Source of the DNA: Verrucomicrobiota bacterium
GTDB lineage: Bacteria > Verrucomicrobiota > Verrucomicrobiia > Limisphaerales > Palsa-1400
Length of the DNA stretch: 64,000 bases
Direction: 5' to 3'
Assembly (NCBI GenBank): GCA_049510745.1
Contig: JBEKYR010000001.1
Span: 192,001-256,000, forward strand
The position numbers and the translations under genes are program-made. The notes beneath the pieces were generated by a model. It did not search any database and had not been told where the DNA came from. It saw nothing but the letters and a program-made list of their open reading frames with translations. Of this stretch, positions 24,513-43,765 are shown piece by piece. The stretch's first letter is position 1; each line of letters begins with the position of its first letter.

Positions 24513-25115
24513 TTGCTCCCCATGCGCCCGCAAGTCAACAAACCTACTGTCGAAATCGTCGCGGCTTGGCTGGCATCGATCGGGCGAAAGATCGACCGTG
24601 CCCGGGCACTCGCCGACAAAACCGAGGAACTCCTGTATGGCATTGCTTGCGAGTTCGATGAATTGCGCCGCCAAATCTCGCCTGTTAACCCGACGATGGC
24701 GCCCAGAATCCAGAGGCGTCGTCCATTAGTCCTTGAATCTATGCCAAATGCAGGCTCCGTGACCCTGGTCGTGAGTGGCGATGGTTCTTCCGCTGTATCT
24801 ATCGACGGACGAACGGGCATTCCCCTCACTCCGCTCGTGACGGCCTTGCTCAGAGTTCTCAAGGCTGACTGTGGCTTAGTCAACGATCACTTGGTCGGCT
24901 GGAAGTCAGTCGATGTGATCCAAGCCGCGCTCAAGGAATACACCCGACAACAGCACAGCAAGGCGGCGGTCAAAGAACTTGTTTACCGCTTGCGCAACCT
25001 CCTTGACCGCCAGCCCGATAATTCCGGCCTGGTGCAGACCAACCACCGTCTGGGTTACCGTTTCGCCGTGCGGCGGCGCGCGCCTGGATCGACGACAGAA
25101 CACGACGACCAATGA
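24513..25115 (+). CDS. Winged-helix (OmpR/PhoB-type C-domain) protein without receiver domain
   Basis: LTPLVTALLRVL...AVKELVYRLRNLL...VQTNHRLGYRF; start uncertain. Confidence 0.65.
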   Translation: MLPMRPQVNKPTVEIVAAWLASIGRKIDRARALADKTEELLYGIACEFDELRRQISPVNPTMAPRIQRRRPLVLESMPNAGSVTLVVSGDGSSAVSIDGRTGIPLTPLVTALLRVLKADCGLVNDHLVGWKSVDVIQAALKEYTRQQHSKAAVKELVYRLRNLLDRQPDNSGLVQTNHRLGYRFAVRRRAPGSTTEHDDQ

Positions 25116-25133: not shown

Positions 25134-25264
25134 CTGACGGTCAGTATGTGACCCGTTGTGACTGCATTGAAGTTTTGCAGCATATTCTCCAGTGGATGCA
25201 GCCCTCCGTTTGTGACCAAGCCCGAAGTTTGGCCTCTGTGACTGTGCATATGTTAAAAAGTCAC
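25134..25264 (+). promoter_or_regulatory. Cluster of TGTGAC repeats upstream of the Ubl/Pup operon
   Basis: TGTGAC at 25147, 25157, 25211, 25237; GTCAC at 25260; CTGAC-G-GTCAG at 25134. Confidence 0.5.
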
Positions 25265-25280
25265 CGGAAACGAAATTTTT

Positions 25281-25817
25281 ATGGCTCATTTCTGGATCAC
25301 TAATGGCGCGGGTGAATGGGGAGTCCACTCGCTGGCCGGGGAGAGTTGCCTGGCTGTATGTGCTGAACACAACGTGCGCTTAACAGCCCCTGCGGATCAG
25401 CCAGGTCTTGCCGAAATCCGCATCCTGCCGCCGGACCCAACTGGTGGGTCGCCGTCATGGACATTGCTGGGGGGCCGGGAGGCATCCCTGCGCGTCAACG
25501 GTCAGCCGTTGGTGCTTGGCATCCGTGCCCTGCGCGACCGCGATGAGATTTCCCTTGCTGGCCATCGATGCTTCTTTTCCACGGAAGAACTCGCACGCGT
25601 TGTGCCGTTCCCAGGGCTGGCTCAACCCGCCTATTGCCCGCGCTGCAAACAAAAAGTGGAGCCTGGGGATCCCGCCGTCGCCTGCCCCCACTGCCGGGCG
25701 TGGCATCATCAGTCGGAAAAATTTCCCTGCTGGACCTACGGCCCCACTTGTGCGCTGTGCCAACTGCACTCCACCGCACTCGACGCGGGCTATGCGTGGA
25801 CGCCGGCAATGCTGTGA
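25281..25817 (+). CDS. Degenerate FHA-like domain + prokaryotic RING finger (putative E3)
   Basis: WTLL...VNGQPL...LRDRDEI FHA-like strands; CPRC...CPHCRAWHH...CW...CALC. Confidence 0.75.
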   Translation: MAHFWITNGAGEWGVHSLAGESCLAVCAEHNVRLTAPADQPGLAEIRILPPDPTGGSPSWTLLGGREASLRVNGQPLVLGIRALRDRDEISLAGHRCFFSTEELARVVPFPGLAQPAYCPRCKQKVEPGDPAVACPHCRAWHHQSEKFPCWTYGPTCALCQLHSTALDAGYAWTPAML

Positions 25818-25818
25818 C

Positions 25819-27003
25819 ATGAAACCCAATCGCCCAGCCGATTCGCGCCAAGCTTTGCAACCCCGTTGCCTGCATGGTGGGGGCAAGCACCTCGTCGTGT
25901 TGGGCGCGGGCGGAAACATCGGTTCGCATCTGGTTCCGCTGCTGGCGCGAATGCCCGGCGTCAAGCGGCTCACGCTCGTGGACTGCGATTGCTATGAGGA
26001 GAAGAATTTGCAGTCGCAGGACATCAGGCCATCGGACATAGGCCAGGCGAAAGCCCGCCTGCAGGCCCGCCGCGCCCGGCGCATCAATCCGAAGCTTGAA
26101 GTTGTGTCCATCGTTGACCGGCTTGAAAACGTCCCGCTCGGCTGCTTGCGAGGCGACATCATCCTCGCTTGTCTTGATTCCAAGGAAAGCCGGCGGTGCG
26201 CGAATGAAATCGCGTGGCGACTGGGCGTGCCCTGGATCGATGCCGGTGTGGAGCCGAGCCTGATGCTGGCGCGGGTGAACGTCTATCTGCCGGCGGCGGA
26301 TCAACCGTGTTTGGAGTGCGCGTGGAGTGAGCGCGACTACGCCGAATTGGCCACGATCCATCCATGCGACGGCGGTGGCTCTAAAAATCCGGCGACCAAC
26401 TCGCCGGCGTGCCTTGGCGCGCTGGCCGCCGCGTTGCAGGCCATTGAATGTCAGAGACTTCTCGCCGGACAATCGGCTTTGATCGGCCGGCAGGTGCTGA
26501 TCGAGGCGGCAACGCACCGGCATTTCGTCACTGCTTTTCGCCGCAACCCCAACTGCCGCTTTGACCATGCGACTTGGAAGATTTCCTCCTGGTGCCAGAC
26601 GCCGCGGAATCTCTCCATCGGCGCGATCCTCAAGCTGGCTCGCCGATCGGGTGCTTCGGCCGCGCTTGCGTTCGGCGGCCAGCCGCTCGTTAAAAGACTT
26701 GATTGTCCGGGGTGCGGCTTCACTCGGCGCGTTTTCCGTTTGCAGCGCCGTCTCAAGCACACCGATCGAGTCTGCGATCGTTGCGGCCGCGAAATGCTTT
26801 CCGCCGGTTTCCACATGAAAACCCGGTTGTCGAACGCGGATCTGGGTCCGGGTGACGCCAGTCGTTCGCTTGCGAGTCTTGGCTTGCAGACGGGCGACGT
26901 CATTTCCTTGGGCAACGGCGCGAGCGAAGAATTCTTCGAACTGCGCCCCGGACCCGGCCCGCACCCGCAAAGAGCGAAATCAATTCAACGGAGGGATTCA
27001 TGA
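25819..27003 (+). CDS. E1-like (ThiF/MoeB family) activating enzyme with C-terminal extension
   Basis: VLGAGGNIGS, VDCDCYEEKNLQSQ, GQAKA, CLDS, WIDAG, PCLEC, candidate catalytic Cys in IHPC; extra CPGC...CDRC. Confidence 0.9.
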   Translation: MKPNRPADSRQALQPRCLHGGGKHLVVLGAGGNIGSHLVPLLARMPGVKRLTLVDCDCYEEKNLQSQDIRPSDIGQAKARLQARRARRINPKLEVVSIVDRLENVPLGCLRGDIILACLDSKESRRCANEIAWRLGVPWIDAGVEPSLMLARVNVYLPAADQPCLECAWSERDYAELATIHPCDGGGSKNPATNSPACLGALAAALQAIECQRLLAGQSALIGRQVLIEAATHRHFVTAFRRNPNCRFDHATWKISSWCQTPRNLSIGAILKLARRSGASAALAFGGQPLVKRLDCPGCGFTRRVFRLQRRLKHTDRVCDRCGREMLSAGFHMKTRLSNADLGPGDASRSLASLGLQTGDVISLGNGASEEFFELRPGPGPHPQRAKSIQRRDS

Positions 27004-27536
27004 GCGACCAGATTTACGAAGCGTTCTTGCGCCGGCAGCTTGAAGAAGGCATGGCGCTGGCCAGCGGCAGCGACGTTCTGGACCTGACGCCGCTTCCAGG
27101 CGGAGAGCCGCCTTTCCGTTATATCGCGCATTTCGAGGGCCGCCGCGGCTTGGTGCGCGACGAGCGGGGCCAAATTGTTGAGTTTGAGAAGTTCATGGTT
27201 GGAATCTGGTTTCCCGAGGACTACCTGCGCCATGTGAACATCCCGCAGGTGCTTACCTACCTCGGCCCCCATCCCGAACCGTGGCATCCCAATATTCGTC
27301 CGCCGTTCTTGTGCGCGCACATTGAGCCAGGCACCGCGCTGGTTGATATACTTTACGCGTGCTACGAAATTTGGACGTGGAACCTGTTTGCGACGGGCGA
27401 CGAGGGCTTAAACCACGCGGCGTCGCAATGGTCGCGCAAACAAGATCGCTCCCGCTTTCCAATTGACCGGCGTCCGCTCCGGCGTCGCGCCGTGGAACTC
27501 GACGTGACCCCGGCTCCGGGAAAGGAAATCGCATGA
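27000..27536 (+). CDS. E2/UBC-like conjugating enzyme
   Basis: IWFPEDY...WHPNIRPPFLC (HPN + Cys)...LNHAASQW; ATGA overlap with E1. Confidence 0.85.
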   Translation: MSDQIYEAFLRRQLEEGMALASGSDVLDLTPLPGGEPPFRYIAHFEGRRGLVRDERGQIVEFEKFMVGIWFPEDYLRHVNIPQVLTYLGPHPEPWHPNIRPPFLCAHIEPGTALVDILYACYEIWTWNLFATGDEGLNHAASQWSRKQDRSRFPIDRRPLRRRAVELDVTPAPGKEIA

Positions 27537-28414
27537 ATCACGTCCACGACGAGGCCATTCGCACGGCCATTGCCGCCGTGACGACGAAACTGGCGCCAGT
27601 GGGCAACTCCGGCTGGCAATTCACTTTGCTCAATGGAGCACCGCACGTTGTGACTGCGAAAACCGACGGTGACTGGGTGTTATTCGAGACGGACTGCACC
27701 GGAGCAGCGCAATGTGCGGATTCTTTCTGGGAAGCCCTTGTGCGCAACGCCTCCTTCGACGGCCTGGCGAAAATCGTGCTGACGTACGATGGCAGCCCGC
27801 GACTGCGAGCTGAAATCCCCGTAACGGAAGACGTTGTCCTCACGACGCGGGTTCGGGAGGTGTGCCGCGGATTCGAAGCCGAATGGACGCACAAAGATGA
27901 ACATTCTCTTGCGGAAGCATCGCCTGAGGGGGCAGAGCCGATGGACCTCAAAAGCCTGTGCTCCGAGGCCGGCTGGCCTTTTGTGGAGCGCGGCGACCGG
28001 AAACTCGCCGTGGAACTTGAAGTTCCGGGCGGGTTCAGCCAGGCGCTCCTGATTCCGACGGAACACGGCGTTCGCATCACTTGCGAAGTCGCGACGCTCG
28101 ACGCCATCGCGGAGGAATGCCGGCAGGCAGTCAGTGGATTCCTGCTTGCCGCTTCTGGGCTTGTTCGCATGGGACGCGCGTCGGTGAACGCGATTGGAAC
28201 GTCGCCGGCGGCCCAGTTCGAGGTTGTCTTCGGAACCGCGCCAAGTCCGCCAGAAATTTCCAGTGCATTGGAATGCCTCTCCATCGCGTGCAGCCTCTGT
28301 GGCGAGGAAATCAAAACGCTGCAAGTGCCGGCCATCGCCGAACGCTACCTTGCCCTGCGCGGTTGGGATGCGGCTCCGGCGGCCCGGCGAAACGAAAGGA
28401 CAGTAACACCATGA
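27533..28414 (+). CDS. Hypothetical protein, probably two tandem YbjN/type III chaperone-like domains
   Basis: Two helix-strands-helix-strands-helix halves (EALVRNASF.GLAK..LRAEIP; SGFLLAASGLVRMGR..FE); ATGA overlaps at both ends. Confidence 0.55.
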   Translation: MNHVHDEAIRTAIAAVTTKLAPVGNSGWQFTLLNGAPHVVTAKTDGDWVLFETDCTGAAQCADSFWEALVRNASFDGLAKIVLTYDGSPRLRAEIPVTEDVVLTTRVREVCRGFEAEWTHKDEHSLAEASPEGAEPMDLKSLCSEAGWPFVERGDRKLAVELEVPGGFSQALLIPTEHGVRITCEVATLDAIAEECRQAVSGFLLAASGLVRMGRASVNAIGTSPAAQFEVVFGTAPSPPEISSALECLSIACSLCGEEIKTLQVPAIAERYLALRGWDAAPAARRNERTVTP

Positions 28415-28707
28415 TTGATGAACCCAAACTCGACATCCTCGCAAGCGATGTCACAGGCCAGACGGTGGTCAACGTCGGCATCGATGCCGGCGACCGGGAG
28501 ATGAGCGTGGGCGAGTTGCTCGACGGCCTGGTGCCGCGGATGAAACTGCCGCGGCTCGGGAACGGCGGGCGGCCGTTGACGTATCACGCCCGGCTGGAAC
28601 GGGAAGGAAGGCATCTGCATGCGACCGAGGTGGTGGGCGAAGCCCTGCAACCCAAGGATCGCATCATGATCCAGCCAACCATCGAAGCGGGAGGCAACCA
28701 CCGATAG
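28411..28707 (+). CDS. Ubiquitin-like beta-grasp protein, 98 aa, ending EAGG-NHR
   Basis: Beta-grasp pattern (SVGELL...GRHL....V...LQPKDRIMI); diglycine 3 residues from the C-terminus; lies between E2 and JAB. Confidence 0.82.
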   Translation: MIDEPKLDILASDVTGQTVVNVGIDAGDREMSVGELLDGLVPRMKLPRLGNGGRPLTYHARLEREGRHLHATEVVGEALQPKDRIMIQPTIEAGGNHR

Positions 28708-28728
28708 CCCGCCAGACCGAGAGGAACC

Positions 28729-29835
28729 ATGAACACTCGACAGCCATACAAATTCGTAATGGAACTGCACAAACGAGATGGCTCTCCACTCGGCCAGGTC
28801 CCGGTGGCGGCCGATTGGGAACCGGCTTGGGAGGCGGTACGCTTCCTGGCCATGCGCCGGTTTCCGCTCGCCGCCCTCGGGGCCGATGCGGTGGCCGAAC
28901 TCCGGCCAGCCTGGCATGAGGAACTCGGTCAACCTTACATCAGCGCAGTGGACGTGGCACTCCAAGTTCCTGGGGCCGGCGAGCTCTCGTGCCGCGTGCC
29001 GAAAAACTTTTTCAAATCGCTTGCCAGTGATGCCAGCGTCCCTCTCGTAGAAAAGGGATCACTCCAGGCGGGCGAGCTTTTCAATTATCTCGTCACCGCG
29101 TTTCCCAGTCCGCAAGAAACGCGTGGTCGCACCCAACCGCGGGCGCGATTCGAGATCGAGGAAGTGCCGACCCCGCTGCCGCTCAAATCCTCGTTGCTGG
29201 CGAAATTTAACGCGCGGTCCGTCGCAGCCGGCGAGCAAAACGAGGAGGACATTCCAGTGTTCATTCCACAGAACGTTCTTGCGGAAACAGATCAATTGAC
29301 ACGCGAGGCGGCGGGGGTGGAAACCGCGTCCGTCCTTATCGGGCATATCCATCGCGACCCGTTGGGCGGAGAGTTGTTTCTCGAAGTGACGGCGCAGATT
29401 CCCGCCCGAAACTCGCAGGCCACCGCCACGAAGGTGAGCTTCGGGCCCGAGACGTGGAACGCAGTTCATGGCGCGCTCGCGTTGAGGAGCGAAAATGAAC
29501 AATGGGTGGGTTGGTTTCATTCGCACCCTGCCGCATCGTGGTGCAATTCCAAATGCTCACCCGAGAGCCGCGCGAAATGTCCGCTACAACGCTCCTTCTT
29601 TAGCGCCGATGACTGCGATGTGCATCGGACCGTTTTTTCCAAGGCGTTTCATATCGCCCTGCTGGTCACGAACACGGACGCCGGGTTACAGCATGCGCTG
29701 TTCTCGTGGCGCAACGGCGTGATTGTGCAACGTGGATTTCACATTCTTGGAAACGAAGGAGAACAAAACCCGGCCGTCGCGCCTGTCGCGGCGGCCACCA
29801 TTGGAGATGCCGAAAATGAAAAAACCTGCCCTTGA
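28729..29835 (+). CDS. JAB/MPN+ metalloprotease with N-terminal extra domain
   Basis: ETASVLIG (Glu), VGWFHSHP, FFSADD; GAGAGG SD. Confidence 0.9.
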   Translation: MNTRQPYKFVMELHKRDGSPLGQVPVAADWEPAWEAVRFLAMRRFPLAALGADAVAELRPAWHEELGQPYISAVDVALQVPGAGELSCRVPKNFFKSLASDASVPLVEKGSLQAGELFNYLVTAFPSPQETRGRTQPRARFEIEEVPTPLPLKSSLLAKFNARSVAAGEQNEEDIPVFIPQNVLAETDQLTREAAGVETASVLIGHIHRDPLGGELFLEVTAQIPARNSQATATKVSFGPETWNAVHGALALRSENEQWVGWFHSHPAASWCNSKCSPESRAKCPLQRSFFSADDCDVHRTVFSKAFHIALLVTNTDAGLQHALFSWRNGVIVQRGFHILGNEGEQNPAVAPVAAATIGDAENEKTCP

Positions 29836-31483
29836 CGAGACTGTTGAGCTAGTGCGCGCCATGCTTTCGGTCGAGGGCCCCCAAAGCCTTGACGGAACTA
29901 TCGCGAGCCTGCAACAGGTCCGCAGCCTGTCTGCGGAAACTGCCGCCGTCGTGGATCGGACGCTGGTGGAAACCGTCGCCGAGTATCGCCGCGCCCTGAA
30001 GCGTGCGCAGCGTGATATTCATCAGTGCCGCGAATTGCTCGAACAACTGTCCGCGCCTCCCCTGCATCCCGCCGTTTTCCATCGAGTGATCAACGCCACC
30101 GGCGCACTCAAGGCCCTGGTCCAGGCGGGAAACGCCCGGCGGGTCGTTTCTCCTGGAGAAGAAATCAATCTTACGAGGTTCGTTCGCGGCGACGAGGTTT
30201 TCCTCAATAACGAACAGAATCTCATCATTGCCGCCTCGCCCGATGGCCCTCCAAGCTGTGGCGAAACCGCGGCGTTCGAGCGTTGTCTGCCCGATGGACG
30301 GCTGGTGCTGCGCCATCACGACGATCATATCGTGGTGGACGTCTGCGGAAAACTGGCGAACACCAAGTTCAAAGCCGGGGACGCCGTGCGTTTCGACCGT
30401 ACTATTTGGATGGCTTATGAGAAAATCGAGCTTGAAACCTCCCGGCGCTACTTGCTGGAGGAAGTGCCGAACCTTCCGCTGGACTCGGTAGGCGGCCAAG
30501 GCGCAAATCTGGAGAGCCTTTTGTCCGTGCTCACGATGATTCTAGTCAACCCGAAACTCGCCGCCACCTACGGCCTGAATGGTCGCAGCTCCATCCTCAT
30601 GGCCGGGCCGCCGGGTTGCGGGAAAACCCTGATGGCCCGCGTCGCCGCGAGCGAAGTCTCACGGCTTACTGGGAAGAAATGCCGTCTTGCCGTGGTGAAA
30701 CCGTCCGAATGGGAATCGCCCTGGGTTGGCCAGACACAGGAAAACATCCGCCAATGCTTCCAAGCGCTTCGCGAGGTGGGCGAGGATGGTTACGCCGTGC
30801 TGTTTATGGACGAAATTGAATCCGTCGGACGGATACGCGGGGGCGCGGTTTCACATCATTCGGATAAGTTTCTCGCAGCTCTGCTGGCCGAACTGGACGG
30901 ATTTACCGACCGCAAGAACGTGGCCATCATCTGCGCCACAAATCGGAAAGATTTGCTTGACGCCGCGCTCTACGAGCGATTGAGCGATTTGGAAATCAAC
31001 GTGGGCCGGCCTGAAATGAAGGGTGCGCGCGCCATCTTCCAGATCCACCTTCCGGAGAGCGTCCCGTTCCATCCGAACGGCGAGCTGGCAATGCCCACGC
31101 GCGAGGCATTGATCGACCACGCCGTTTCCCAGTTCTACAGCCCGAACGCCGGCAACGAGCTTTGCACGCTCCGGTTTCGCGACGGCAAGCAACGGATCAT
31201 CGTCGCGCGCGAATTGGCCAGCGGACGCCTGTTTGAGAATGTGTGCCGCAGTGCGCGCCGTAGCGCATTCCTGCGCGAGGTCCGCGGCGGCGTCGCGGGG
31301 GTGCAATTGATGGACATGCAGGAAGCGGTCAGCCAGACGCTGGAACGAATGCGCACGACTTTGACCATTCGTAACGCCCAGGCGTATCTGCCCGATTTGC
31401 CTCAGGACGTGGATGTGGTCAGCGTCGAACCCATTGTCCGCAGGGTGAAGCAACCCCACAAGTATCTCAATCAACCGGCCTGA
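29816..31483 (+). CDS. arc: ARC/Mpa-like proteasomal AAA ATPase
   Basis: Coiled coil-LSAPP, beta-rich interdomain, LLEEVP..VGG, GPPGCGKT, VLFMDEIES, LLAELDG, ATNRKDLLD, ASGRLFENV. Confidence 0.85.
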   Translation: MKKPALDETVELVRAMLSVEGPQSLDGTIASLQQVRSLSAETAAVVDRTLVETVAEYRRALKRAQRDIHQCRELLEQLSAPPLHPAVFHRVINATGALKALVQAGNARRVVSPGEEINLTRFVRGDEVFLNNEQNLIIAASPDGPPSCGETAAFERCLPDGRLVLRHHDDHIVVDVCGKLANTKFKAGDAVRFDRTIWMAYEKIELETSRRYLLEEVPNLPLDSVGGQGANLESLLSVLTMILVNPKLAATYGLNGRSSILMAGPPGCGKTLMARVAASEVSRLTGKKCRLAVVKPSEWESPWVGQTQENIRQCFQALREVGEDGYAVLFMDEIESVGRIRGGAVSHHSDKFLAALLAELDGFTDRKNVAIICATNRKDLLDAALYERLSDLEINVGRPEMKGARAIFQIHLPESVPFHPNGELAMPTREALIDHAVSQFYSPNAGNELCTLRFRDGKQRIIVARELASGRLFENVCRSARRSAFLREVRGGVAGVQLMDMQEAVSQTLERMRTTLTIRNAQAYLPDLPQDVDVVSVEPIVRRVKQPHKYLNQPA

Positions 31484-31487
31484 CCCA

Positions 31488-33251
31488 GTGAATCCAATGC
31501 CCACATCCACCAGCCAAGCCGGTTCACACAACGGCGAGTCACCACGCCCCCGCCTGCCGAAGCTCTGCGGCGCTGATTTCGAGCTGGGCAACCTCGTTCT
31601 CGGAATCGACCTGCCAAAGGGCACGGGTGCGCTTGCTTCTCATTTGCTCTTGCGGGAATTCGACGGTCTGCCTTTGGCGCGCAAAGGCCAGTCCATCTGT
31701 TACTGTCAAGCCTGCACGGCGCGGCGGCGGGCGTTGGAGGATGGTTACACCACGGCCGAGTTCCTGGGCGAAGAGTGTTCCATGACCAAGTACGGCTCGG
31801 CCTACAATGCGCAGGACTGGGCGCGCAAATTCCTCAGCAACGGCGGCTGCGCTTACATTGATCTCGATCATCTCGAATTGTGCATCCCGGAGGTTCTGAG
31901 CGCGCGTGACCACGTTGCGGCGTCGCACGCGATGTTGCGCAAGGCGCGCGCGGCCCTGCAAATGGCCAACGCGCGATTGCCGGAAGGAAAGAAAATTGTC
32001 GCGCTGGCGAACAACTCCGACGGGCAGGGCCATTCTTACGGCAGCCACCTGAATTTTCTGGTCACGCGCCGCGCTTGGAGCGATTTGTTCGAGCGGCGGT
32101 TGCAACATCTGCTCTTTCTTGCCGCCTACCAGGCCTCCAGCATCGTGTTTACAGGGCAGGGGAAAATCGGCGCCGAAAACAACCGTCCGCCGGTGCAGTA
32201 CCAGATTTCGCAGCGGGCGGATTTCTTCGAGGTGTTAATGGGGCCGCAGACGACGTGGAACCGCCCCCTGATAAACAGTCGCGATGAGGCTTTATGTGGT
32301 CCGTGGTATGGAGCCAGCGCGAGTCCAGACTCGGTAGAAAAGGCACGGTTGCACGTCATTTTCTATGACCAAACTCTTTGCCACACCGCCAGCCTGCTCA
32401 AGGTCGGGGTGATGCAGATTATTCTCGCTATGATCGAGGCCGGAAGCGTTCGCACCAGCATCGTGCTTGATGATCCAGTTGAAGCGGTTTGGCAGTGGAG
32501 CCACGACCCGACACTGCATTGCCGCGTGCGGCTGGCGGACGGCCGCAACCTCACCGCCGTCGAGTTGCAGATGCTGTTTTGGGAGGAGGCGCAGCGTTTT
32601 GTCGCCAGCGGCGGCTGCACCGACATCGTGCCGGACGCGCCACACATCCTCGAACTCTGGTCAGACACACTGGGCGAACTGCGCGCGCGCGACTATGCCG
32701 CACTGGCGCGCCGGCTGGATTGGGTCCTCAAACTGCAGATCCTCCAGCGCGCGCGACAGCAACGGCCCAATCTCACCTGGGCCTCGGCGGAGCTCAAACA
32801 TTTGGACTTCATGTACGGCAGCCTCGAAGACGGACTGTACTGGGACCTCGAAAAAAACGGCCTGGTTAACGCTCTTGTCACCAGCGAAGAGATCGAACAC
32901 TTCCGCAATGAACCGCCGGAAAACACACGCGCGTGGACCCGCGCGAGGTTGCTGCGCCTGGCCGAACCGCAGCAGATCGAGCGTGTGGACTGGGACAGCA
33001 TCACCTTTTCGCTCAAGGGCGACCATTACTGGCCGCGCGAAAGCACGGTCAATCTGACCAATCCGCTTGGCTTTACGCGAACTGCCTGCCAACGGGTCTT
33101 TCAGCTTTCGACTACCCTGGAGGAGGCGTCGGCCATGTTAAGCGCCAATCAGGACGGAACGGCAGCCATTTCGCCAACAAACGCAGCCGTGCAGGAACCA
33201 ATCCAAATTGAAGGAGATCACCATGAATCAACGCGAACGCCCCCAGCATGA
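31488..33251 (+). CDS. dop: Dop-like Pup deamidase/depupylase (PafA/Dop family)
   Basis: GADFELG, long loop, FLSNGGCAYIDLDH, NNSDGQGHSYGSH, SQRADFFE, INSRDE, RLHVI, LDWVLK, PPENTRA, DWDS. Confidence 0.8.
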   Translation: MNPMPTSTSQAGSHNGESPRPRLPKLCGADFELGNLVLGIDLPKGTGALASHLLLREFDGLPLARKGQSICYCQACTARRRALEDGYTTAEFLGEECSMTKYGSAYNAQDWARKFLSNGGCAYIDLDHLELCIPEVLSARDHVAASHAMLRKARAALQMANARLPEGKKIVALANNSDGQGHSYGSHLNFLVTRRAWSDLFERRLQHLLFLAAYQASSIVFTGQGKIGAENNRPPVQYQISQRADFFEVLMGPQTTWNRPLINSRDEALCGPWYGASASPDSVEKARLHVIFYDQTLCHTASLLKVGVMQIILAMIEAGSVRTSIVLDDPVEAVWQWSHDPTLHCRVRLADGRNLTAVELQMLFWEEAQRFVASGGCTDIVPDAPHILELWSDTLGELRARDYAALARRLDWVLKLQILQRARQQRPNLTWASAELKHLDFMYGSLEDGLYWDLEKNGLVNALVTSEEIEHFRNEPPENTRAWTRARLLRLAEPQQIERVDWDSITFSLKGDHYWPRESTVNLTNPLGFTRTACQRVFQLSTTLEEASAMLSANQDGTAAISPTNAAVQEPIQIEGDHHESTRTPPA

Positions 33252-33426
33252 AAATCCATTCTCCGCCGCCCCCGGACCAGCAGGCGGTCCGGATGGAGCC
33301 AACTTAAACGCCATTCGTCAAACTGCCGCCGGCATGCTGGCCGCCGCCGATGAAGCAATCAGCCGCGTGCTTTCTGGCGACAGCCAGGCTTTCAACGCCG
33401 CCGCGCGGCAGGAGGGCGGACAGTAA
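33223..33426 (+). CDS. pup: Pup-like prokaryotic modifier, 67 aa, ending GGQ
   Basis: Low-complexity N-half; ADEAISRVLSGDSQAFNAAARQEGGQ parallels the Pup C-terminus (DEIDDVLEENAEDFVRAYVQKGGQ); AAGGAG SD; lies between two PafA/Dop homologs. Confidence 0.85.
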   Translation: MNQRERPQHENPFSAAPGPAGGPDGANLNAIRQTAAGMLAAADEAISRVLSGDSQAFNAAARQEGGQ

Positions 33427-33446
33427 TATCGCGAGGAGGCACGGGT

Positions 33447-35864
33447 ATGGCGCAACGATTGTTCGGCATGGAAATCGAGTACGGCTGCGCGGCGCGCAGC
33501 CGCGATGCCGCGCGGACAGTTCGCAACCGTGACTGGGTGGGCGAGTTCATGAGAATCGCCTGCGAACGCCTGCCGCACCTGCCTTCGATGGAAGGCGGGG
33601 GAATTTTCCTCGAGAATGGAGCGCGGTTTTACGTGGATTGCTCGCATCCTGAAATGACCACGCCCGAGTGTTCCAATCCCTGGGACGTGGTCCGCTACAT
33701 GCAGGCTGGCGAAAAGATGTTGACTGCCGTCGCCGAGGAAATGCAGCGGCGGCAGCCCTCATTGGCCGAAGTGATGATCTTTAAAACCAACGTGGATCAT
33801 AGCGGCAGCGGCGCGACCTGGGGTTGCCACACCTCCTTTATGCATCTCGGAAACCCGGAGAAGTTCCCAGATCAAATCATTCCACATTTGGTCAGCCGGA
33901 TTGTTTATTCCGGCGCTGGCGGATTGGAGTTGGTGGATGGGCGTTTTCGTTTCACGCTCTCGCCGCGCGTCAGGTTTCTCGAACGTGAAGTTTCGCACAA
34001 CAGCACCAGCGAGCGTGGCATTTTCCATACGAAGGACGAAACGCTGGCCAACGAGGGATGTCATCGCCTGCACATTATCTGCGGGGAGAGCCTCTGCTCG
34101 GAAACCGCGCTCTGGCTGAACATGGGAGCGACGGCCGTGATCGTGGCGCTCATCGAGGCGGGCTTGCGCCCTGGTCAAGCCGTGCGTTTGCAGGATCCTT
34201 TGGGTGCCATGCGGCGCTTCTCCCTTGACCCCACCTGCCGGGCCGTGGCGCAGACCCTTGGCGGAAAGAAATTGAGCGCCGTGCAGATTCAGCGCCACTA
34301 CTTGGAAATTGCCCAGACGCACCTCGGCGCTCCCTTCATGCCGCCCTGGACGGACCAGGTTTGCATCCAATGGCGCGCAATGCTGGATCGTCTGGAAAAC
34401 GGGGCTCCCGGCTCCGTGGCCGCAACGCTGGATTGGGCCATGAAGTTGGGCCTGTTCCTGGATCGCGCAGAGCGGAGGGGGCTAGGCCCCCAACACTGGC
34501 ATCCCATCGGTCCGGCAGTGCTACAGGAACTCGATGGCGATGAACCCGGCCTCTGCGATGAAGCGCCAGCCTCCAAGAAACCCGCTTCCGCTTCTGCGGC
34601 GGTCTGCAAGGTTCACCAGGAACTCTGCGAGATAGACACCCGGTTCGCCCAACTCGGGGACAACGGCATCTTCGCCGCTTTGAGCCGGGCGGGAGTGTTG
34701 GCCCATCACTTGGCCGGGGTGGACAACATTGAGCACGCCCTGGCCAATCCACCGGCCATCGGCCGCGCGCGGTTGCGGGGTCTGTGCGTGCAGCGGTTCA
34801 AGGGCCAGAACCACCGCTACTCCTGTAGCTGGCGCAACGTCGTGGACCGCGAGAAAAACCTGTTGCTCGACCTTTCCGAGCCGTTTATCTCCGAGGAAAA
34901 ATGGCTGCCTGTGCCCGCGAGTTTTCGAGACCCGGACACCTCCATCCAAGGCCACTTGCGCCGGATATTAAGCGAGGCTCGCATGCGCCACGACCGCGGC
35001 GACCATGAGTCCGCCGCGGCGATTCTGCGCCAGATGGAAGGTTTCCAATCCGCCCTCGAATTGGAAAATCACTCGGAATATCTGCGATTGCGAGCTTGGA
35101 TCCAGAGTCGCAGAGGCTTCCTCGACAGCATACCCGCTCTCGATGCTTTGGCGCAGTCGGAGTTGATGACTCTCTCCCTCGCCAACTCATACGTGTGCGC
35201 CTACCGCTACCAGGGACTGATGCCGCCGCCGGCGATTGAGGCCTGGATCCGGCGCGGACGCGAATTCCTTTCTCCAAGACCCGATCGTTCTGACGGGGCC
35301 GCGTTGCCCTTCCTTGGACATTGGGGCTACTTCCTGCTGCGCAGCGGGCAGCCCTATGACGCGCTCCGCACGTTACATGATGCGTGCCAGCCCATCCGGC
35401 GGGAAAGCGCCAATCCCGCCGCCATCTCCCGGGCACTGGCGGACTACGGCGACGCCTGTCGCGCGGTTGGGCAACACTTCGAAGCCAAAGCCTTGCTCGA
35501 CGAAGCCCAAGCCATGCAGACGGAGCATCAACTCGAAGGGGACTTGTCGGACTTTGCCCTGACTCATCGCGCCAAACTTGAGACCCATTCTGAGCGCGCG
35601 TTGGAACTGCTTGCCCAGGCCAGGACCATTCAAACGCGCCTGGGAAACGTCATGGGGGAAACACGAACGCTGCTGTTGGAAGCCCGGTTCCTGCGCCATC
35701 GCACACTCACCGTGCAACATAAAGCACGCCTCCATGAACTGCGCGGAATGCGCCCGGCGCTTTCCCAGTGCCGGCTCTTTGGTAAAATCCTCGACAAATG
35801 GGAAGCCTGGACCAGCGGCGGCGCTGACCCGGACGGTGGAGGGGATACATTCTGGTGGCTGTGA
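33447..35864 (+). CDS. pafA: PafA-like Pup ligase fused to a C-terminal helical-repeat (TPR-like) region
   Basis: RLFGMEIEYG, FLENGARFYVDCSHPE, GCH, TKDE, RLHIICG, LDWAMK, RARLRG; then ~300 aa of helical repeats. Confidence 0.82.
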   Translation: MAQRLFGMEIEYGCAARSRDAARTVRNRDWVGEFMRIACERLPHLPSMEGGGIFLENGARFYVDCSHPEMTTPECSNPWDVVRYMQAGEKMLTAVAEEMQRRQPSLAEVMIFKTNVDHSGSGATWGCHTSFMHLGNPEKFPDQIIPHLVSRIVYSGAGGLELVDGRFRFTLSPRVRFLEREVSHNSTSERGIFHTKDETLANEGCHRLHIICGESLCSETALWLNMGATAVIVALIEAGLRPGQAVRLQDPLGAMRRFSLDPTCRAVAQTLGGKKLSAVQIQRHYLEIAQTHLGAPFMPPWTDQVCIQWRAMLDRLENGAPGSVAATLDWAMKLGLFLDRAERRGLGPQHWHPIGPAVLQELDGDEPGLCDEAPASKKPASASAAVCKVHQELCEIDTRFAQLGDNGIFAALSRAGVLAHHLAGVDNIEHALANPPAIGRARLRGLCVQRFKGQNHRYSCSWRNVVDREKNLLLDLSEPFISEEKWLPVPASFRDPDTSIQGHLRRILSEARMRHDRGDHESAAAILRQMEGFQSALELENHSEYLRLRAWIQSRRGFLDSIPALDALAQSELMTLSLANSYVCAYRYQGLMPPPAIEAWIRRGREFLSPRPDRSDGAALPFLGHWGYFLLRSGQPYDALRTLHDACQPIRRESANPAAISRALADYGDACRAVGQHFEAKALLDEAQAMQTEHQLEGDLSDFALTHRAKLETHSERALELLAQARTIQTRLGNVMGETRTLLLEARFLRHRTLTVQHKARLHELRGMRPALSQCRLFGKILDKWEAWTSGGADPDGGGDTFWWL

Positions 35865-36101: not shown

Positions 36102-39100
36102 ATGAAACGTCTTCTTGCCGCTGGCGCCGCCCTATTGCTGCTGGGCTGCGATCTCCATCATAATCGCTCTGAACACGTCGAACTGATTCTCAATCCTTCC
36201 CCGGCTGTTCCCGCCACAACATTTGAACTGCGGTTTGACCAACCGATGGTGGGACCGGACAGAATCGGCCGTCCGGCGGAACCGTCGCCTCTGGTCATCA
36301 AGCCGGCCCTGGGCGGCGTCTTCACCTGGCTCAGCACGCGGAGTGGCACTTTTGTGCCGTCCGATCCCCTAGCGCTGGACCACCGATACAAACTATCACT
36401 GCGGTCCGGCTTGATGGGCGCGGACGGACGCCCCTCTCCGGCCGTCTTGCACGACCGCGTGGAAACGCCGCGGTTCTCGATGGTCGATTCGGCTCCCCGG
36501 CGGAACCAGGCGGATTTGAATTCGGAACAAATCGTGACGCTCGTTTTCAACGCGCCCGTGCGCGCCGCAGATTTGGCGCCGTATCTCGAATTCCGCGACG
36601 CCGGGGGTCAGCACCGGGCGGCTGAAATCCGGCAGGGCACCAACGAAGATATGCCTTGGGACTATCGGCGTTTGGATTTGCCGGCCAATCTCGTTTCCAA
36701 CTTGGTCTTGGCCGCGCCGCAAAAACCATTGCCGGTTGGCCAAGATTGGCGGTTGGTCCTTCGACCCGGTCTCCCCGCCGTCGAGAAGGGATTGCGCTTG
36801 CGCGCCCGCGACGAAATCCAATTGGGCGACGTCCATCCGTTTGTTTTCAAGGAAGCCATCGCGCATCATTTTATCGAAGGCGGCGCTTCAATTGTTCTCC
36901 AGTTTTCAAAGCCGGTTGCGCTGTCCTTGGGCGACAAATGGAACCGTTGGATTCACCTGGAGCCGATCGCATCCAATATCACGGCGGAGGCGGACGGCAA
37001 ATGTCTGACTTTGCAGGGCGATTTTCGAGGTGGAACCTGCTACCAGCTTGCCGTGAAAACCGGATTGCCTGCCGAGGAATCCTTCATCTTGGACGATGCC
37101 GCGTTGACCAACATCATCATGCCCGGCATTCCGCCGCGGCTCTATTTTTCGGCCTTTTCCGCGGATCAACAGGCGGTGGGACGGCGCCAGTTCCCCCTGC
37201 TGGCCGTGAACGTGCCGACCATCCGTCTTCGTGCCAAATTGCTGGAACCTGACGCGGCCATTCACGCTTTGCGCGGCTACGGCAGCTACTTCCGCTCCTG
37301 GCCTGATTATGACACCCACGGCGAGCGTTACCAGCGTGTCGATTATAATTTAATCGCCGGTCGAACGATCTTCGATGAAGAATTGGCCGGCACGCCACAA
37401 TCGGACATGGCCACCAACGTGATGCTGGACTGGGATCGGGTTTTGGGCGGGCGCAAAACCGGGGTCATTTTTGTCGAGGCCGAGCGCGCGGGCGAGCGTT
37501 CTGAATCCAGCCCGCGCCTGGGCACGCAGGCCCTGATGCAATTAACCGATCTCGGCGTGGCCTGGAAATCCGCCGCCGGGGAGTTGGATGCCTTTGTCTT
37601 TTCGCAAAGCACCGGAGAGCCTGCCACCGGCGCGGCCGTCCGATTGTTCGACGACGAGAACCAAGTGCTGCAAGAAGCGCTCACCGACGATCGAGGACTG
37701 GCGCATCTGCAATGCCCGAGCAACGCTCAATGGCTGGGGGCTGCGCTCGGACAGGACTTCCACGCCTTGAAAATCGAGGACCACGGCATCCCGCTTTACG
37801 GGTTCGATCTTCCGCAGTCCTGGGGCGGTGGAACCGCGAGCGCCCGGCCTGTGTTGATTTTCAGTGACCGCCAGTTTTACCGTCCGAATGAAACGCTCCA
37901 TCTCAAGGCGCTGGCGCGAGAATGGACGCGTGATGGTCTGGCTATTCCGTCCGAACTGGCCGGAACGCTGGAATGTTGTGACGCGCGGGGAAAATCGTTC
38001 TTTTCGAACAATGTCCACTTCAGCGGACGCGGTGCCTGCTCGGTCGATGTGCCCCTGCCGGCGGGGCCGTGCGGCGATTATGTCGCGCGCTTGCATCTGG
38101 GAGATTCGGGCGATTCGGTTTACGAGCACGCCTTCCAAGTCCAGGAACTCAAGCCGAACCCATTTGAAGTGACCGTGCAAGCCAAGCCCGAGTATGCAGC
38201 TGGTGACAAAGTGGAGATTCCCATATCGGCCCGTTATTACTTTGGCCAGCCGTTGTCCGCGGCGCGGGTGAAATGGACGTTGGAAGTGGATGAGAGCGGT
38301 TTCAAGCCTGCGGGCTTCGACTCATTCAGTTTTCTTCGAGCTTCGCCTGGATCGCATCTGGCCTTTTCCGGCGAGACGCGCATGTCCAACTCTCCCGTCT
38401 GCGTGATAAAGCCGGTAATGCCGTCGAATAATGCAGCGCCCGGCCCGCGCCGGATGTCGCTTCTAGTCGAGACGACCGACCTTGACCAGCAAACCGTTTC
38501 CAGCAGTGCGGAGTTCACCTGTCACAGCTCGGACTTTTACCTGGGCTTGTGCCAGACTGACTCGGTTTGGACCGCCGGCCAGGAATCGCCTCTGCAAATC
38601 GTCGCCGTCGGGGCCGACGGTCAGCCGTGGCCGCAACCGGTGGCCGCGCACTTGCAACTCCAGCGCGTGGATTGGGAGCCGGTGCGCGTGCAAGGCGCCG
38701 GCAGCACCCTCCGCTATCTCCCTCAATCCGCTTCTTCCAACGTGCTCGATCGCGACATTGAAATCCACGGGCTGACCAACCAGCTCCTGGCCGCCGCCGA
38801 GCCGGGACAATACGCGCTGGAGATTTCTGCCACGGACACACATGGACGCGCGGTGGCCACATCCCTTGAATTCTCCGTCTCCGCGCCCGGCAGCCTGGCT
38901 TGGAATTACCGCGACGAAGTCCGCATGGAACTCCAACCCGACCGTTCCGAATACGCACCCGGAGAAACGGCGCGAGTGCTGGTCAAGGCGCCTTTCAGCG
39001 GCATGGCGTGGGTCACGGTCGAACGCGACAAAGTGCTCCGCTCCTTCTCCGCGCAGTTGGACGGCAACGCGCCCGCGATTGAAATCCCCATCGGGCGTGG

Positions 39101-41528: not shown

Positions 41529-43765
41529 AAAGACGGCGATTCTTCGTTGGGCTGGGCGTGATGATATTGGTGATCCTGAGCGGGCCGATCCTGGTCTCCT
41601 TCGTGCCCTTACCGCCGGCCTTGTTCACCCCTCCCCGTCCAGCCGTCGAGTTGTTGGACCGGAACGGAGAGCCACTGCGCCTGACCCGCGACGGCGACCG
41701 CCCTTTTCAGCAATATGCTGGGCTGTCGGAAATGCCCCAGGCGCTGGTCAGTGCAACGCTGGCGGCCGAGGACAGCCGGTTTTGGAGTCATCATGGCGTG
41801 GATTGGCGGGCGGACTTGCGCGCCGGTTGGCAATTGATTTGGAACCGGCGCATCATCTCAGGAGCTTCGACCATCACGCAGCAGTTGATCAAGTTAAGCG
41901 CGCCGCGGCCGCGGACGTTCAAGGCCAAAATCATCGAGACAGCGCAGGCGTTGCGCCTGGAGCAAATCTGGGACAAGCAGCGGATTTTGACCGAGTACCT
42001 GAATCGGGTTGATTACGGCAACTACAACTGCGGCTGTGTGGCGGCGGCCCAATTCTACTTCGCCAAACCGCCGCGCGATTTGAGCACGGCCGAGTGCGCG
42101 TTGCTGGCCGGATTGCCGCAGTCCCCATCGCGATTGAATCCGCGCACGCATTTCGCCCGCGCCCTTCGCCGACAAGTTTGGATTCTGACGCGCATGAACA
42201 AGGAGGGTTGGCTGGCCGCTGATGAATTCCAACGGGCTTTGCAGGAGCCGCTACGCCTGGCTCATGGCGGCCGCGTCTTCGAGGCACCCCATTTTGTGGA
42301 TTTGCTGTTAGAACAGGGAGGCGTGGCGGCGGGCAATTCCAGCGTCCGCACCACGCTGGACCTGCGTCTCAATCGCTTCGCCGGGCAAATCCTGCGTCGG
42401 CAGCTTGGCGCGTTGCAGGCCGAACACGCCGGCGAGGGCGCCATTGTGGTCATCGAAAATCAAACCGGCAACCTGCTCGCCCTGGTTGGATCGCGCGATT
42501 ATTTTTCGGCGCAGTCCGGGCAAGTCGATGGCGCCTTGGCGCCACGCTCAACCGGATCGGCGTTGAAACCGTTCCTGTACTGGCTGGCGTTCGAACGGGG
42601 CGCGACGCCCGCCTCCATCGTGCCCGATGTTCCAACGGATTTTGCCACCAGCACCGGCTTGTTCTCGCCTGTCAACTATGATCGCCATTGTTACGGCCCC
42701 GTGCGCTATCGCGTGGCCCTGGCCAATTCGCTCAACATTTCGGCGGTGAAGATTCTTGATTCGTTGGGTGGAGCGGGGCCGCTGCTTGATTTGCTGCGGC
42801 GCTGCCGTCTCTCCACGCTGACCCGTGCGGACAACAACTATGGACTCGGTCTTGCCATCGGCAACGCGGAAGCGCGCCTGCTCGAACTGGCCAATGCCTA
42901 CGCCAGCCTGGCCCGTTTGGGCGTCTGTCGGCCGTACCGCCTACTGCCATCCGCAGACAGCCAGAACGCCGGCGAGCGCGTTGGCGACGCTGACGCCGCA
43001 TGGCTGATCGCCGACATTCTGAGTGACAATGACGCCCGTGCGGCCGCTTTCGGCCCGGAATCCTCATTGCGTTTTGATTTTCCAGTGGCCTGCAAAACGG
43101 GCACCAGTTCGAATTTCCGGGACAATTGGGCCTTTGGTTACACGCCGGAATTCACCGTGGGAATTTGGGTGGGGAATTTTGACGGCTCGCCCATGCGGCA
43201 CATCTCCGGCGTCACAGGCGCGGCGCCCATTCTGCACGATCTCTTCGATTATCTGCATTCCCAATACGGCACAACTTGGTATGCCCGCCCCGCAGACATC
43301 GTGGAACGTAGGATCGATCCTCTCAGAGGCAATCTCTCCTCCAAACAAGATGCTGTCAGCGAAAGATTCATGGCCACTGTCCTGCCACCTGCAAACAGGG
43401 CCGACGACTACGACGACGCTGGGTGTGTCCGCCTTGGCCCGGAATATCGGCAATGGCTGGCCAGCGCGGACAATTGGCTGGCTGGCCGGGCCGTCTTGCG
43501 CGAAACTGGGCAAGACCTGCGCGTCACATTCCCGTTGCCCGGCACCATTCTCTTTCTCGACCCTGACCTTCCGGACCACGGTCGCCGGCTCTATCTGACC
43601 AGCCAGGGGACGGACGAGGCCGAGTGGTCCAGCGATTCTCTGGAGTGCCTCCGGCAAGGCGATCGGAGTCTGGCCCTCCTGGCATTGGGCCAGCACGAAT
43701 TGACCGTGCGCGACCCGCGCACCGGCGCCACGCGGCAAACCTGGATCGAAGTCAAAGAACGGTGA
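41525..43765 (+). CDS. pbpC: Penicillin-binding protein 1C
   Basis: AEDSRFWSHHGVD, GASTITQQL, SALK (SxxK), SLN, KTGTS; coupled to alpha-2-macroglobulin. Confidence 0.93.
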   Translation: MKRRRFFVGLGVMILVILSGPILVSFVPLPPALFTPPRPAVELLDRNGEPLRLTRDGDRPFQQYAGLSEMPQALVSATLAAEDSRFWSHHGVDWRADLRAGWQLIWNRRIISGASTITQQLIKLSAPRPRTFKAKIIETAQALRLEQIWDKQRILTEYLNRVDYGNYNCGCVAAAQFYFAKPPRDLSTAECALLAGLPQSPSRLNPRTHFARALRRQVWILTRMNKEGWLAADEFQRALQEPLRLAHGGRVFEAPHFVDLLLEQGGVAAGNSSVRTTLDLRLNRFAGQILRRQLGALQAEHAGEGAIVVIENQTGNLLALVGSRDYFSAQSGQVDGALAPRSTGSALKPFLYWLAFERGATPASIVPDVPTDFATSTGLFSPVNYDRHCYGPVRYRVALANSLNISAVKILDSLGGAGPLLDLLRRCRLSTLTRADNNYGLGLAIGNAEARLLELANAYASLARLGVCRPYRLLPSADSQNAGERVGDADAAWLIADILSDNDARAAAFGPESSLRFDFPVACKTGTSSNFRDNWAFGYTPEFTVGIWVGNFDGSPMRHISGVTGAAPILHDLFDYLHSQYGTTWYARPADIVERRIDPLRGNLSSKQDAVSERFMATVLPPANRADDYDDAGCVRLGPEYRQWLASADNWLAGRAVLRETGQDLRVTFPLPGTILFLDPDLPDHGRRLYLTSQGTDEAEWSSDSLECLRQGDRSLALLALGQHELTVRDPRTGATRQTWIEVKER

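Follow-up and report, generated by a model that had tools for sequence, protein, structure and literature searches.

The window analysed here is a stretch of 64,000 nucleotides (nt) from the genome of a Verrucomicrobiota bacterium of peat (GenBank assembly GCA_049510745.1, contig JBEKYR010000001.1, positions 192,001 to 256,000 of the forward strand). Between its positions 25281 and 35864 lie ten co-directional open reading frames (ORFs) of the plus strand, just as an earlier note on this DNA had described. They comprise a complete set for tagging with a ubiquitin-like protein (Ubl) and a complete set for tagging with a Pup-like protein, placed around a single proteasome-type unfolding motor. 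Together with the upstream regulator gene g0, which is probably the eleventh component, we refer to these ten to eleven genes as the cassette and number them g0 to g10 along the DNA (Table 1).

Re-reading of the junctions confirmed the three ATGA overlaps claimed at 27000, 27533 and 28411, and a fourth lies at 33223 if the Pup-like gene begins at its own ATG. The JAB and ATPase genes share the longer overlap reported for them, 29 nt in length. The gaps stay within the 21 nt that had been given: 1 nt between RING and E1, 21 nt between Ubl and JAB, 4 nt between the ATPase and Dop-like genes and 20 nt between the Pup-like and PafA-like genes. The E1 gene begins at 25819 and not within the RING gene.

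The two halves form one conserved unit, as the note had supposed; their co-occurrence in other genomes, whose lack had been named beforehand as the refutation, was found. Scanning one genome per species with the E2 profile alone returned 80 loci, two of which are distant E2-E1-JAB loci (L088 and L089), and the other 78 were scored by tblastn. The Ubl, JAB, ATPase and Dop-like genes follow each other in this order in all 62 loci with at least 7 kb of downstream sequence. RING and E1 are present in 68 of the 72 loci with at least 1.9 kb upstream, and all seven genes from RING to Dop-like keep the same order in 56 of the 58 loci with room on both sides. Where at least 8.5 kb was available downstream (60 loci), a Pup-like ORF was found in 55 and an adjacent PafA-like gene in 48. 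The record titles of the 78 loci name Verrucomicrobiota, Acidobacteriota, Gemmatimonadota, Planctomycetota, Myxococcota/Deltaproteobacteria and Gammaproteobacteria; phyla are taken from these titles, and a few labels of metagenome-assembled genomes (MAGs) look unreliable.

In the reverse direction, metagenome contigs were searched with the Dop-like profile, which retrieved 22 loci at 49-80% identity and 57 at 32-40%. Upstream sequence of 5 kb or more is available for seven of the close loci; in six of these the genes from E2 to JAB are present, and the seventh (L096) has RING and g4. The 57 loci at 32-40% identity are ordinary Mpa-Dop loci, many with an Mpa-like gene upstream, and none of them has a gene of the Ubl half. 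Pairwise distances between the eight larger families, taken over 44 loci, correlate just as strongly across the halves (JAB-ATPase 0.77, the strongest value; Ubl-Dop 0.72) as within each half (E1-E2 0.64, ATPase-Dop 0.64). These correlations show co-inheritance of the halves, not co-evolution.

Table 1 Components of the cassette in the window (g0 to g10) and other features mentioned in the text; L numbers denote related loci.
Feature	Location	Strand	Evidence or content
g0, winged-helix (OmpR/Trans_reg_C-type) regulator	24513..25115	+	Trans_reg_C, 21 bits, E 3.5e-4
g1, FHA-RING protein, putative E3 or adaptor	25281..25817	+	Prok-RING_1; AlphaFold2 model
g2, E1-like adenylating enzyme with zinc sites and C-terminal domain	25819..27003	+	ThiF
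g3, E2-like (UBC-type) enzyme	27000..27536	+	invariant HPN...C
g4, tandem T3SS-chaperone/YbjN-like protein (pseudo-dimer), 293 residues	27533..28414	+	AlphaFold2 fold matches
g5, Ubl, YukD/SAMP-like beta-grasp candidate	28411..28707	+	conserved [D/E]AG end, then GNHR tail
g6, JAB/JAMM isopeptidase with N-terminal domain of ~170 residues	28729..29835	+	JAB; metal-site residues
g7, Mpa/ARC-like AAA+ unfoldase	29807..31483	+	AAA, OB domain
g8, Dop-like enzyme (candidate deamidase/depupylase)	31488..33251	+	Pup_ligase
g9, Pup-like tag, 67 aa, no lysine, GGQ end	33223..33426	+	Pup chains among PDB matches
g10, PafA-like enzyme (candidate ligase) with C-terminal TPR-like extension	33447..35864	+	Pup_ligase; TPR_12
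Direct TGTGAC copies in the g0/RING spacer	25147-25242		four copies
Alpha-2-macroglobulin gene and penicillin-binding protein gene	36102-43765		
UBact-type set, first part (window's own genome)	C5:125312-128460	-	56-residue tag ending RTGQ, two proteasome subunits, PafA-like gene
UBact-type set, second part (window's own genome)	C30:31206-34746	+	Mpa-like and Dop-like genes
Separate g0-RING-E1 unit	L169:1495-3559		
Separate g0-RING-E1 unit	L170:544-2589		
Separate g0-RING-E1 unit	L171:1504-3672		
Reduced form (metagenome contig)	L096:2558-7309		FHA-RING, g4, Mpa-like ATPase, Dop-like
P-loop protein of ~390 residues (example)	L050:18517-19695		AAA_lid_9
Sigma-54 activator upstream of the RING gene	L030, L032, L040, L055, L013		

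In the Ubl arm, g1 scores slightly below the cut-off of the Pfam model Prok-RING_1 in the window (27.1 bits, cut-off 29.1), and the model is matched by all 20 members of its family. Over these 20 sequences the zinc ligands form a C4HC3 set: C119, C122, C135, C138, C150, C157 and C160 are invariant and H143 nearly so. C4HC3 is described as the prokaryotic RING arrangement in passages of a 2024 review (PMC11354881). The AlphaFold2 model of g1, with a predicted local distance difference test score (pLDDT) of 92.1, shows an FHA fold over residues 1-105 (Z up to 10.2 in VIA, where FHA domains make up almost the whole of the first 48 rows) and places a match to the RING domain 7r70 over residues 103-173 (Z 6.3). 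FHA domains in general are eleven-strand beta sandwiches with Arg, Ser and His residues that bind phosphothreonine. Pfam FHA has no match in g1, and one of the 20 family members matches Yop-YscD_cpl (E 0.026). The label FHA-RING, proposed in the earlier note, holds for the RING and for the FHA fold; conserved phosphothreonine-binding residues are lacking.

The E1-like protein g2 is recognised by ThiF (Pfam, 96.6 bits), and its best solved relatives are ThiF, MoeB, UBA7 and UBA5. The GxGxxG loop, R44 and D120 are invariant, as are the cysteine or histidine pairs C164/C167, C246/H250, C296/C299 and C319/C322. A lone invariant cysteine, C183, lies between the zinc ligands and is a candidate for the catalytic residue; we take its position to be the one in which E1 catalytic cysteines sit.

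Pfam and NCBIfam contain nothing that recognises g3, g4, the Ubl or the Pup-like tag. We read g3 nonetheless as a likely E2: H96-P97-N98 and C105 are invariant in 16 aligned sequences, and 227 homologues were found. The nearest ESM Atlas clusters carry UQ_con in 13-41% of their members, one being named UBC core, and the PDB gives a weak match to a ubiquitin-conjugating enzyme (E 0.25).

The Ubl had been thought to end in Gly-Gly. Its C-termini, read across all loci, end instead in a conserved [D/E]-A-G, and A93 and G94 are invariant in 19 aligned sequences and followed by tails of 0-12 residues. The window form reads EAG and then GNHR; the apparent Gly-Gly therefore consists of the conjugating glycine and the first residue of the GNHR tail. 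Weak matches anchored at this end lead to SAMP1/MoaD (E 0.06-0.07). The named Atlas clusters nearest to the Ubl are YukD (14% of members), phenol hydroxylase P4 and TmoB; YukD, TmoB and P4 are all beta-grasp families. The last enzyme of this arm, g6, passes the Pfam JAB cut-off (23.3 bits against 22.5) and has an intact metal site of the form E...HxH...SxxD, with E198, H264, H266, S292 and D295 invariant in 20 sequences; its family profile has no solved relative at E 0.01.

In the Pup arm, the ATPase g7 combines an AAA module (95.6 bits) with the proteasomal OB domain Prot_ATP_ID_OB_C (28.6 bits). It aligns with TIGR03689 over model positions 15-481 of 512 at 246 bits, under the cut-off of 504.75. 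In 59 sequences its conserved C-terminus reads ...PHRYLNxA (...HKYLNQPA in the window), so that the tyrosine stands several residues from the end and is not penultimate; these 59 tails have no end-standing HbYX or GQYL docking motif.

Both g8 and g10 belong to Pup_ligase (PF03136; 313 and 288 bits). The Dop-like g8 prefers the Dop model TIGR03688 (272 bits, against 217 for the PafA model) and solved Dop chains (232 bits, against 113 for PafA). Its family keeps the catalytic residues intact (D30, E32, D125, H128 and E130 are invariant) and has a variable insert of about 50-90 residues at the position of the Dop-loop. The N-terminus of g10 aligns with solved PafA from residue 2 and lacks the Dop-loop; overall, the protein is nearer to solved Dop chains (169 bits, against 111 for PafA). 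Neither reaches the equivalog level of Dop or PafA in NCBIfam (272 bits with a cut-off of 492, and 208 bits with one of 551). In the sections of Hecht et al. 2020 (PMC7947786) that bear on this point, the Dop-loop favours hydrolysis and its loss favours ligation. Because of this shift, g8 is assigned here as a candidate deamidase or depupylase and g10 as a candidate ligase. The earlier description of g10 as PafA-TPR needs qualifying: the TPR is weak in the window (TPR_12, 17.1 bits), and a long C-terminal tail (at least 700 aa) is confined to some lineages (14 of 51 measured related PafA-like genes, plus the window's own).

Equivalents of the Pup-like ORF in 56 loci end in GGQ (37), GGE (17) or SGE (2), and the predominant GGQ ending implies a deamidase. 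Six of the seven best PDB matches to the Pup-like profile are Pup chains (E 0.075-0.49), anchored on F..x..Q.GGQ, and Pfam Pup is matched by one of 18 family members (E 0.12). The lysine content of the cassette proteins does not differ from that of neighbouring genes.

A quick, unrooted tree of the two Pup_ligase paralogues was built from 84 rows, cut from 116 by removing near-duplicates and short rows. The cassette-type Dop-like and PafA-like proteins each form a clade of their own (23 of 23 rows each, 100 in the Shimodaira-Hasegawa-like approximate likelihood ratio test, SH-aLRT), which branches off on a long stem apart from the ordinary Dop and PafA sequences. Within both clades, sequences group mostly by phylum. 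The relation of the two clades to Dop and PafA is left unsettled by this tree, in which the rows from the window's own genome are long-branched; the joining of the PafA-like clade with the own-genome PafA (support 93) may be long-branch attraction.

Between E2 and Ubl stands g4, which the earlier note called chaperone-like. As a description of the fold this is correct: both domains are of the type III secretion system (T3SS) class I chaperone or YbjN type, a dimerising alpha-beta3-alpha-beta2-alpha domain. The AlphaFold2 model (pLDDT 88.7, predicted template modelling score 0.87) consists of two tandem alpha-beta domains. Taken singly, they match SicP, SycN-YscB, ExsC and SchA with Foldseek probabilities of 0.99-1.00. 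VIA matches cover both domains (Z 9.3-6.0), and the first 20 rows consist entirely of T3SS chaperones, YbjN-family proteins and uncharacterised proteins of similar size. The cassette has no secretion system, and the predicted likeness appears to be one of fold only. By tblastn, g4 was detected in 55 of the 62 loci with at least 7 kb downstream, and its family counts 1759 clusters at 50% identity in public data (E<=1e-3). In L018, L033 and L037 the space between E2 and Ubl is about 515 nt, against about 880 nt elsewhere, and tblastn finds no g4; these loci may have a single-domain g4 or have lost it.

Natural variants show where the cassette comes apart. Three Blastocatellia-type genomes have g0, RING and E1 elsewhere as a unit of three genes, and the stretch from E2 to PafA is kept intact; in one of these genomes, about 40 kb of the same contig separate the two parts. 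Two more loci, L091 and L111, look like the split form. Since it is g0-RING-E1 that separates, the cassette breaks between E1 and E2 and not at the border of the Ubl and Pup halves. A reduced form, L096, has its FHA-RING, g4, ATPase and Dop-like genes in a row, without E1, E2, Ubl and JAB. Both this form and the split variants suggest that RING and g4 are the components in contact with the two arms.

Other variation concerns the distal end. The PafA-like gene is displaced in 12 Acidobacteriaceae-type loci. In 16 loci, the window not among them, a P-loop protein of about 390 residues follows the Pup-like or PafA-like gene; it combines a ClpA/B-type AAA lid (AAA_lid_9, 32.6 bits) with an unassigned N-terminal domain and may be an optional twelfth component. 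Some hosts hold more than one set: in the Chthoniobacteraceae MAG G423, the host of L047, contig C81 carries two cassette-type Dop/PafA pairs about 25 kb apart, and G408 seems to hold two copies of the cassette.

There are no 20S genes in the cassette, and they were rarely found in its hosts. Among 40 host genomes, the bacterial 20S beta model TIGR03690 has a strong match in one, G423 (174 bits); the other 15 matches reach at most 32 bits, the level of HslV-type matches in control genomes. Exactly two Pup-ligase matches, those of the cassette itself, are present in 32 of the 40, and G423 is the only one with an ordinary high-scoring Dop/PafA pair. The window's own genome contains, away from the cassette, proteasome subunits with a tag, Mpa-like, Dop-like and PafA-like genes (Table 1), a set of the ordinary Pup/UBact type; UBact tags end in R[T/S]G[E/Q].

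A member of the g0 family adjoins the cassette in 39 related loci, of which 23 have it upstream in the same orientation and 13 downstream in the opposite one; in the split variants it travels with RING-E1. Sigma-54 activators (15 loci) and SorC-type proteins (13 loci) are the other recurrent neighbours. Of the 15 loci with a sigma-54 activator, 6 have a -24/-12-like element in the 350 nt before the RING gene, compared with 1 of the 52 loci that lack the activator, and in Gemmatimonadota the activator seems to take the place of g0. The window has 7 matches to the sigma-54 promoter, with 7.7 expected; none lies near the cassette or ahead of g0 or g1, and scans for sigma-70 promoters and terminators did no better than on shuffled sequences. 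The 165-nt spacer between g0 and RING contains four direct copies of TGTGAC, out of 19 in the whole window. Possibly g0 uses these copies as its operator; related loci do not conserve the repeat ahead of their RING genes.

The flanks of the cassette hold housekeeping genes and glycoside hydrolases, and neither they nor the cassette include a conserved substrate gene. Downstream of g10 lie genes for an alpha-2-macroglobulin (1808 aa) and a class A penicillin-binding protein with a PBP-C terminus, the usual pair, which is not conserved beside the cassette elsewhere. Cassette DNA recurs in peat metagenomes. In a peat metatranscriptome (run X20), contigs 90-98% alike cover E2/g4, g4/Ubl, JAB, the ATPase, Dop/Pup and PafA; this hints weakly at expression of both halves in a relative.

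We now propose a course of events for the cassette. We lean, by a small measure, towards reading it as one inducible, self-contained system for tagging and unfolding, which would use two chemically unrelated tags and no proteasome core. Observed directly are the genes themselves, their intact catalytic motifs, their constant order, the joint inheritance of the halves and the missing 20S genes of the hosts; every biochemical step that follows is inferred. JAB would trim the short tail of the Ubl and expose its terminal glycine. E1 would adenylate this glycine, take the Ubl onto Cys183 and pass it to Cys105 of E2, and the FHA-RING protein would select the target lysine. In parallel, the Dop-like enzyme would deamidate the Pup-like tag from GGQ to GGE, and the loop-less PafA-like enzyme would ligate it to target lysines. 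The Mpa-like ring would then bind the Pup-like tag, use its disordered N-terminus as a threading handle and unfold or extract the marked protein, with JAB and Dop recycling the tags. Because no 20S core was found in most hosts, we would expect unfolding, disassembly or hand-over to a housekeeping protease as the outcome, not built-in proteolysis.

The 26S proteasome needs both ubiquitin and an unstructured initiation region on its substrates. By analogy, the Ubl arm could provide selectivity and the Pup arm the handle, the tandem chaperone-like g4 and the FHA-RING protein being the likeliest bridge between them. In this more specific form, which we put forward tentatively and short of thinking it probable, the E3-directed Ubl mark would choose the protein, the Pup-like tag would serve as the handle and the ATPase, with a JAMM protease of its own and no 20S, would unfold or dismantle the target, FHA-RING and g4 coupling the two chemistries. 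Sequential tagging, in which one tag marks a protein and the other routes it, had been suggested in the earlier note and is plausible; such routing must work without 20S in most hosts.

Several observations weigh against a self-contained two-tag system. The hosts are MAGs of unknown completeness, and 20S genes are therefore not found in them, which is less than absent; where the own genome has a canonical UBact-proteasome system, as in the window's bacterium, the cassette ATPase could in principle borrow its 20S. Scores that place both Pup_ligase paralogues nearer to Dop than to PafA make the assignment of ligase and deamidase uncertain. The two proteins also keep a motif of Dop length beside the catalytic Asp, judged against Table 1 of Hecht et al. 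2020 (PMC7947786), so the roles given to g8 and g10 are an inference. In the 20 g1 sequences, the GR and SxxH residues with which FHA domains bind phosphothreonine are not conserved. The reduced form L096, a single contig, means that the Pup arm may work without the Ubl arm. The peat RNA contigs may stem from contaminating DNA, and none of them bridges the JAB/ATPase junction, although gaps in their coverage carry no weight. Coupling of one tag onto the other was considered as well and dropped: no lysine of the Ubl is invariant (the most frequent one, which follows Q17, is present in 12 of 19 sequences as we read the alignment) and the Pup-like tag of the window is free of lysine, which leaves such coupling unsupported.

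Could the cassette be an anti-phage or other conflict system, in which invader proteins, or host proteins that the invader needs, are tagged and unfolded as Bil tags phage tail proteins? Its spread is very patchy, with E2 in only one of 401 sampled genomes of the window's phylum (the window's own) and yet six phyla in the locus titles. Bil and Cap2/Cap3 of the cyclic oligonucleotide-based antiphage signalling system (CBASS) are precedents for defence by E1, E2 and JAB; a NACHT/DUF4062 neighbour occurs in 5 loci, and related Ubl systems are placed among conflict systems by Kaur et al. 2020. We nevertheless consider a conflict role unlikely. PADLOC (2023 library) gave only generic, low-scoring matches, namely AAA, JAB (19.8 bits) and, across the Rossmann part, E1-E2 models (17-34 bits); it left 8 of the 11 cassette proteins unmatched and returned no specific Bil or CBASS model. 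No E2 relative was found in viral contigs, the window's flanks hold housekeeping and glycan-degrading genes, and the recurrent neighbours are transcription regulators and not defence genes. The role in phage defence that the earlier note had considered is unsupported on these grounds, and the grouping by phylum inside the Dop-like and PafA-like clades also speaks against a conflict system.

The arms might also act on each other, for example if the Ubl, placed on the Pup enzymes or on the ATPase, primed or restrained them in the way that Cap2 primes the CBASS cyclase. The lack of a conserved substrate gene would fit this, and so would the 29-nt overlap of JAB with the ATPase gene together with their co-variation, the strongest of all (r 0.77). 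L096 makes the Ubl arm look dispensable and hence possibly modulatory; it is, however, a single contig, and as a means of self-regulation an entire E1-E2-RING set that includes an FHA recognition domain is elaborate, so that we would give this idea a low probability. Lower by far, to the point of being very improbable, is that of two independent systems that happen to lie side by side or use a common promoter. The two chemistries are indeed unrelated and each works alone elsewhere: the distant loci L088 and L089 have E2, E1 and JAB without a Pup half, and ordinary Mpa-Dop loci have no Ubl half. Against mere neighbourhood stand the gene order kept in 56 of 58 loci across the six phyla named in their titles, the two separate clades formed by the cassette-type paralogues, and the fact that cassette-type Dop-like genes were never seen without part of the Ubl half where the flanks allowed it. 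The natural splits, too, fall between E1 and E2 and not between the halves.

Ubiquitin-type and Pup-type tagging are the textbook case of convergent, unrelated solutions, and each has been studied in isolation. A cassette that joins them raises the question of what two tags can do that one cannot. It also asks what role a proteasome-type ATPase has without a protease, and whether the pairing of a JAMM enzyme with an Rpt-like ring, as in the lid and base of the 26S proteasome, had bacterial forerunners. If g4 always sits in such a cassette, the system would be common in soil and peat bacteria. The set of ten genes is compact and could be expressed in a laboratory host.

The only printed mention that we found, one sentence in Kaur et al. 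2020, concerns the same pairing, of E1, E2, RING, JAB and Ubl with Pup conjugation, and hints at a link between Ubl tagging and degradation. That sentence names only Thermofonsia and Planctomycetes, without a gene list, counts or anatomy; the titles collected here add Verrucomicrobiota, Acidobacteriota, Gemmatimonadota, Myxococcota and Gammaproteobacteria, and most of our hosts lack a detected 20S. In the corresponding part of Iyer et al. 2008, Ubl and Pup systems are not linked. Our literature search found no study of the cassette, and the supplements of Iyer et al. 2008 and Kaur et al. 2020 may list such neighbourhoods. The earlier claim of no precedent thus stands as far as characterised examples go, with the pairing itself already mentioned in that one sentence of Kaur et al. 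2020. The present analysis adds the split and reduced forms, the fold assignments for g4 and g1, the actual C-terminal end of the Ubl, the paralogue tree and the host survey.

Compared with known systems, the downstream half follows the actinobacterial Pup-proteasome (Mpa/ARC, Dop, Pup, PrcBA, PafA) and UBact in its order of ATPase, Dop-like, tag and PafA-like genes. Shared as well are the GG[Q/E] end of the tag with F..x..Q.GGQ, the GhExE-type motif with catalytic Asp, His and Glu, and an ATPase with OB and AAA domains. Unlike the Pup-proteasome, the cassette has no 20S; its ATPase falls below the equivalog cut-off and has no end-standing Tyr motif. Both ligase paralogues lie outside the ordinary Dop and PafA clades, and the window's genome has a separate ordinary set.

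For the upstream half, the closest parallels are prokaryotic tri-ligase Ubl systems (E1, E2, RING, JAB, Ubl), which Burroughs, Iyer and Aravind reportedly described in 2011, and Bil, Bub and CBASS Cap2/Cap3. With these the cassette shares an E1 with a candidate Cys, a likely E2 with HPN...Cys, a C4HC3 RING, a JAMM enzyme and a small tag, here a candidate beta-grasp protein, that would need C-terminal trimming. In contrast to Bub and CBASS, its E1 is nearer to ThiF/MoeB (79 bits) than to BubCD (42 bits) or Cap2 (37 bits). Unlike tri-ligase, Bil and CBASS sets, it has a Ubl ending in Ala-Gly and is joined to a Pup module and an unfoldase.

The cassette differs from the eukaryotic 26S proteasome and from FHA-RING ligases in having no 20S core, a second (Pup) tag and an FHA domain whose phosphopeptide pocket is not conserved. 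By analogy, its FHA domain followed by RING has the architecture of RNF8, one of the RNF8 and CHFR type of ligases, and the FHA domain of RNF8 is among the fold matches of g1. In the same sense, the JAMM gene that overlaps, and strongly co-varies with, a gene for a PAN/Rpt-type ATPase resembles the 26S base and lid, and recalls Rpn11 on the Rpt ring.

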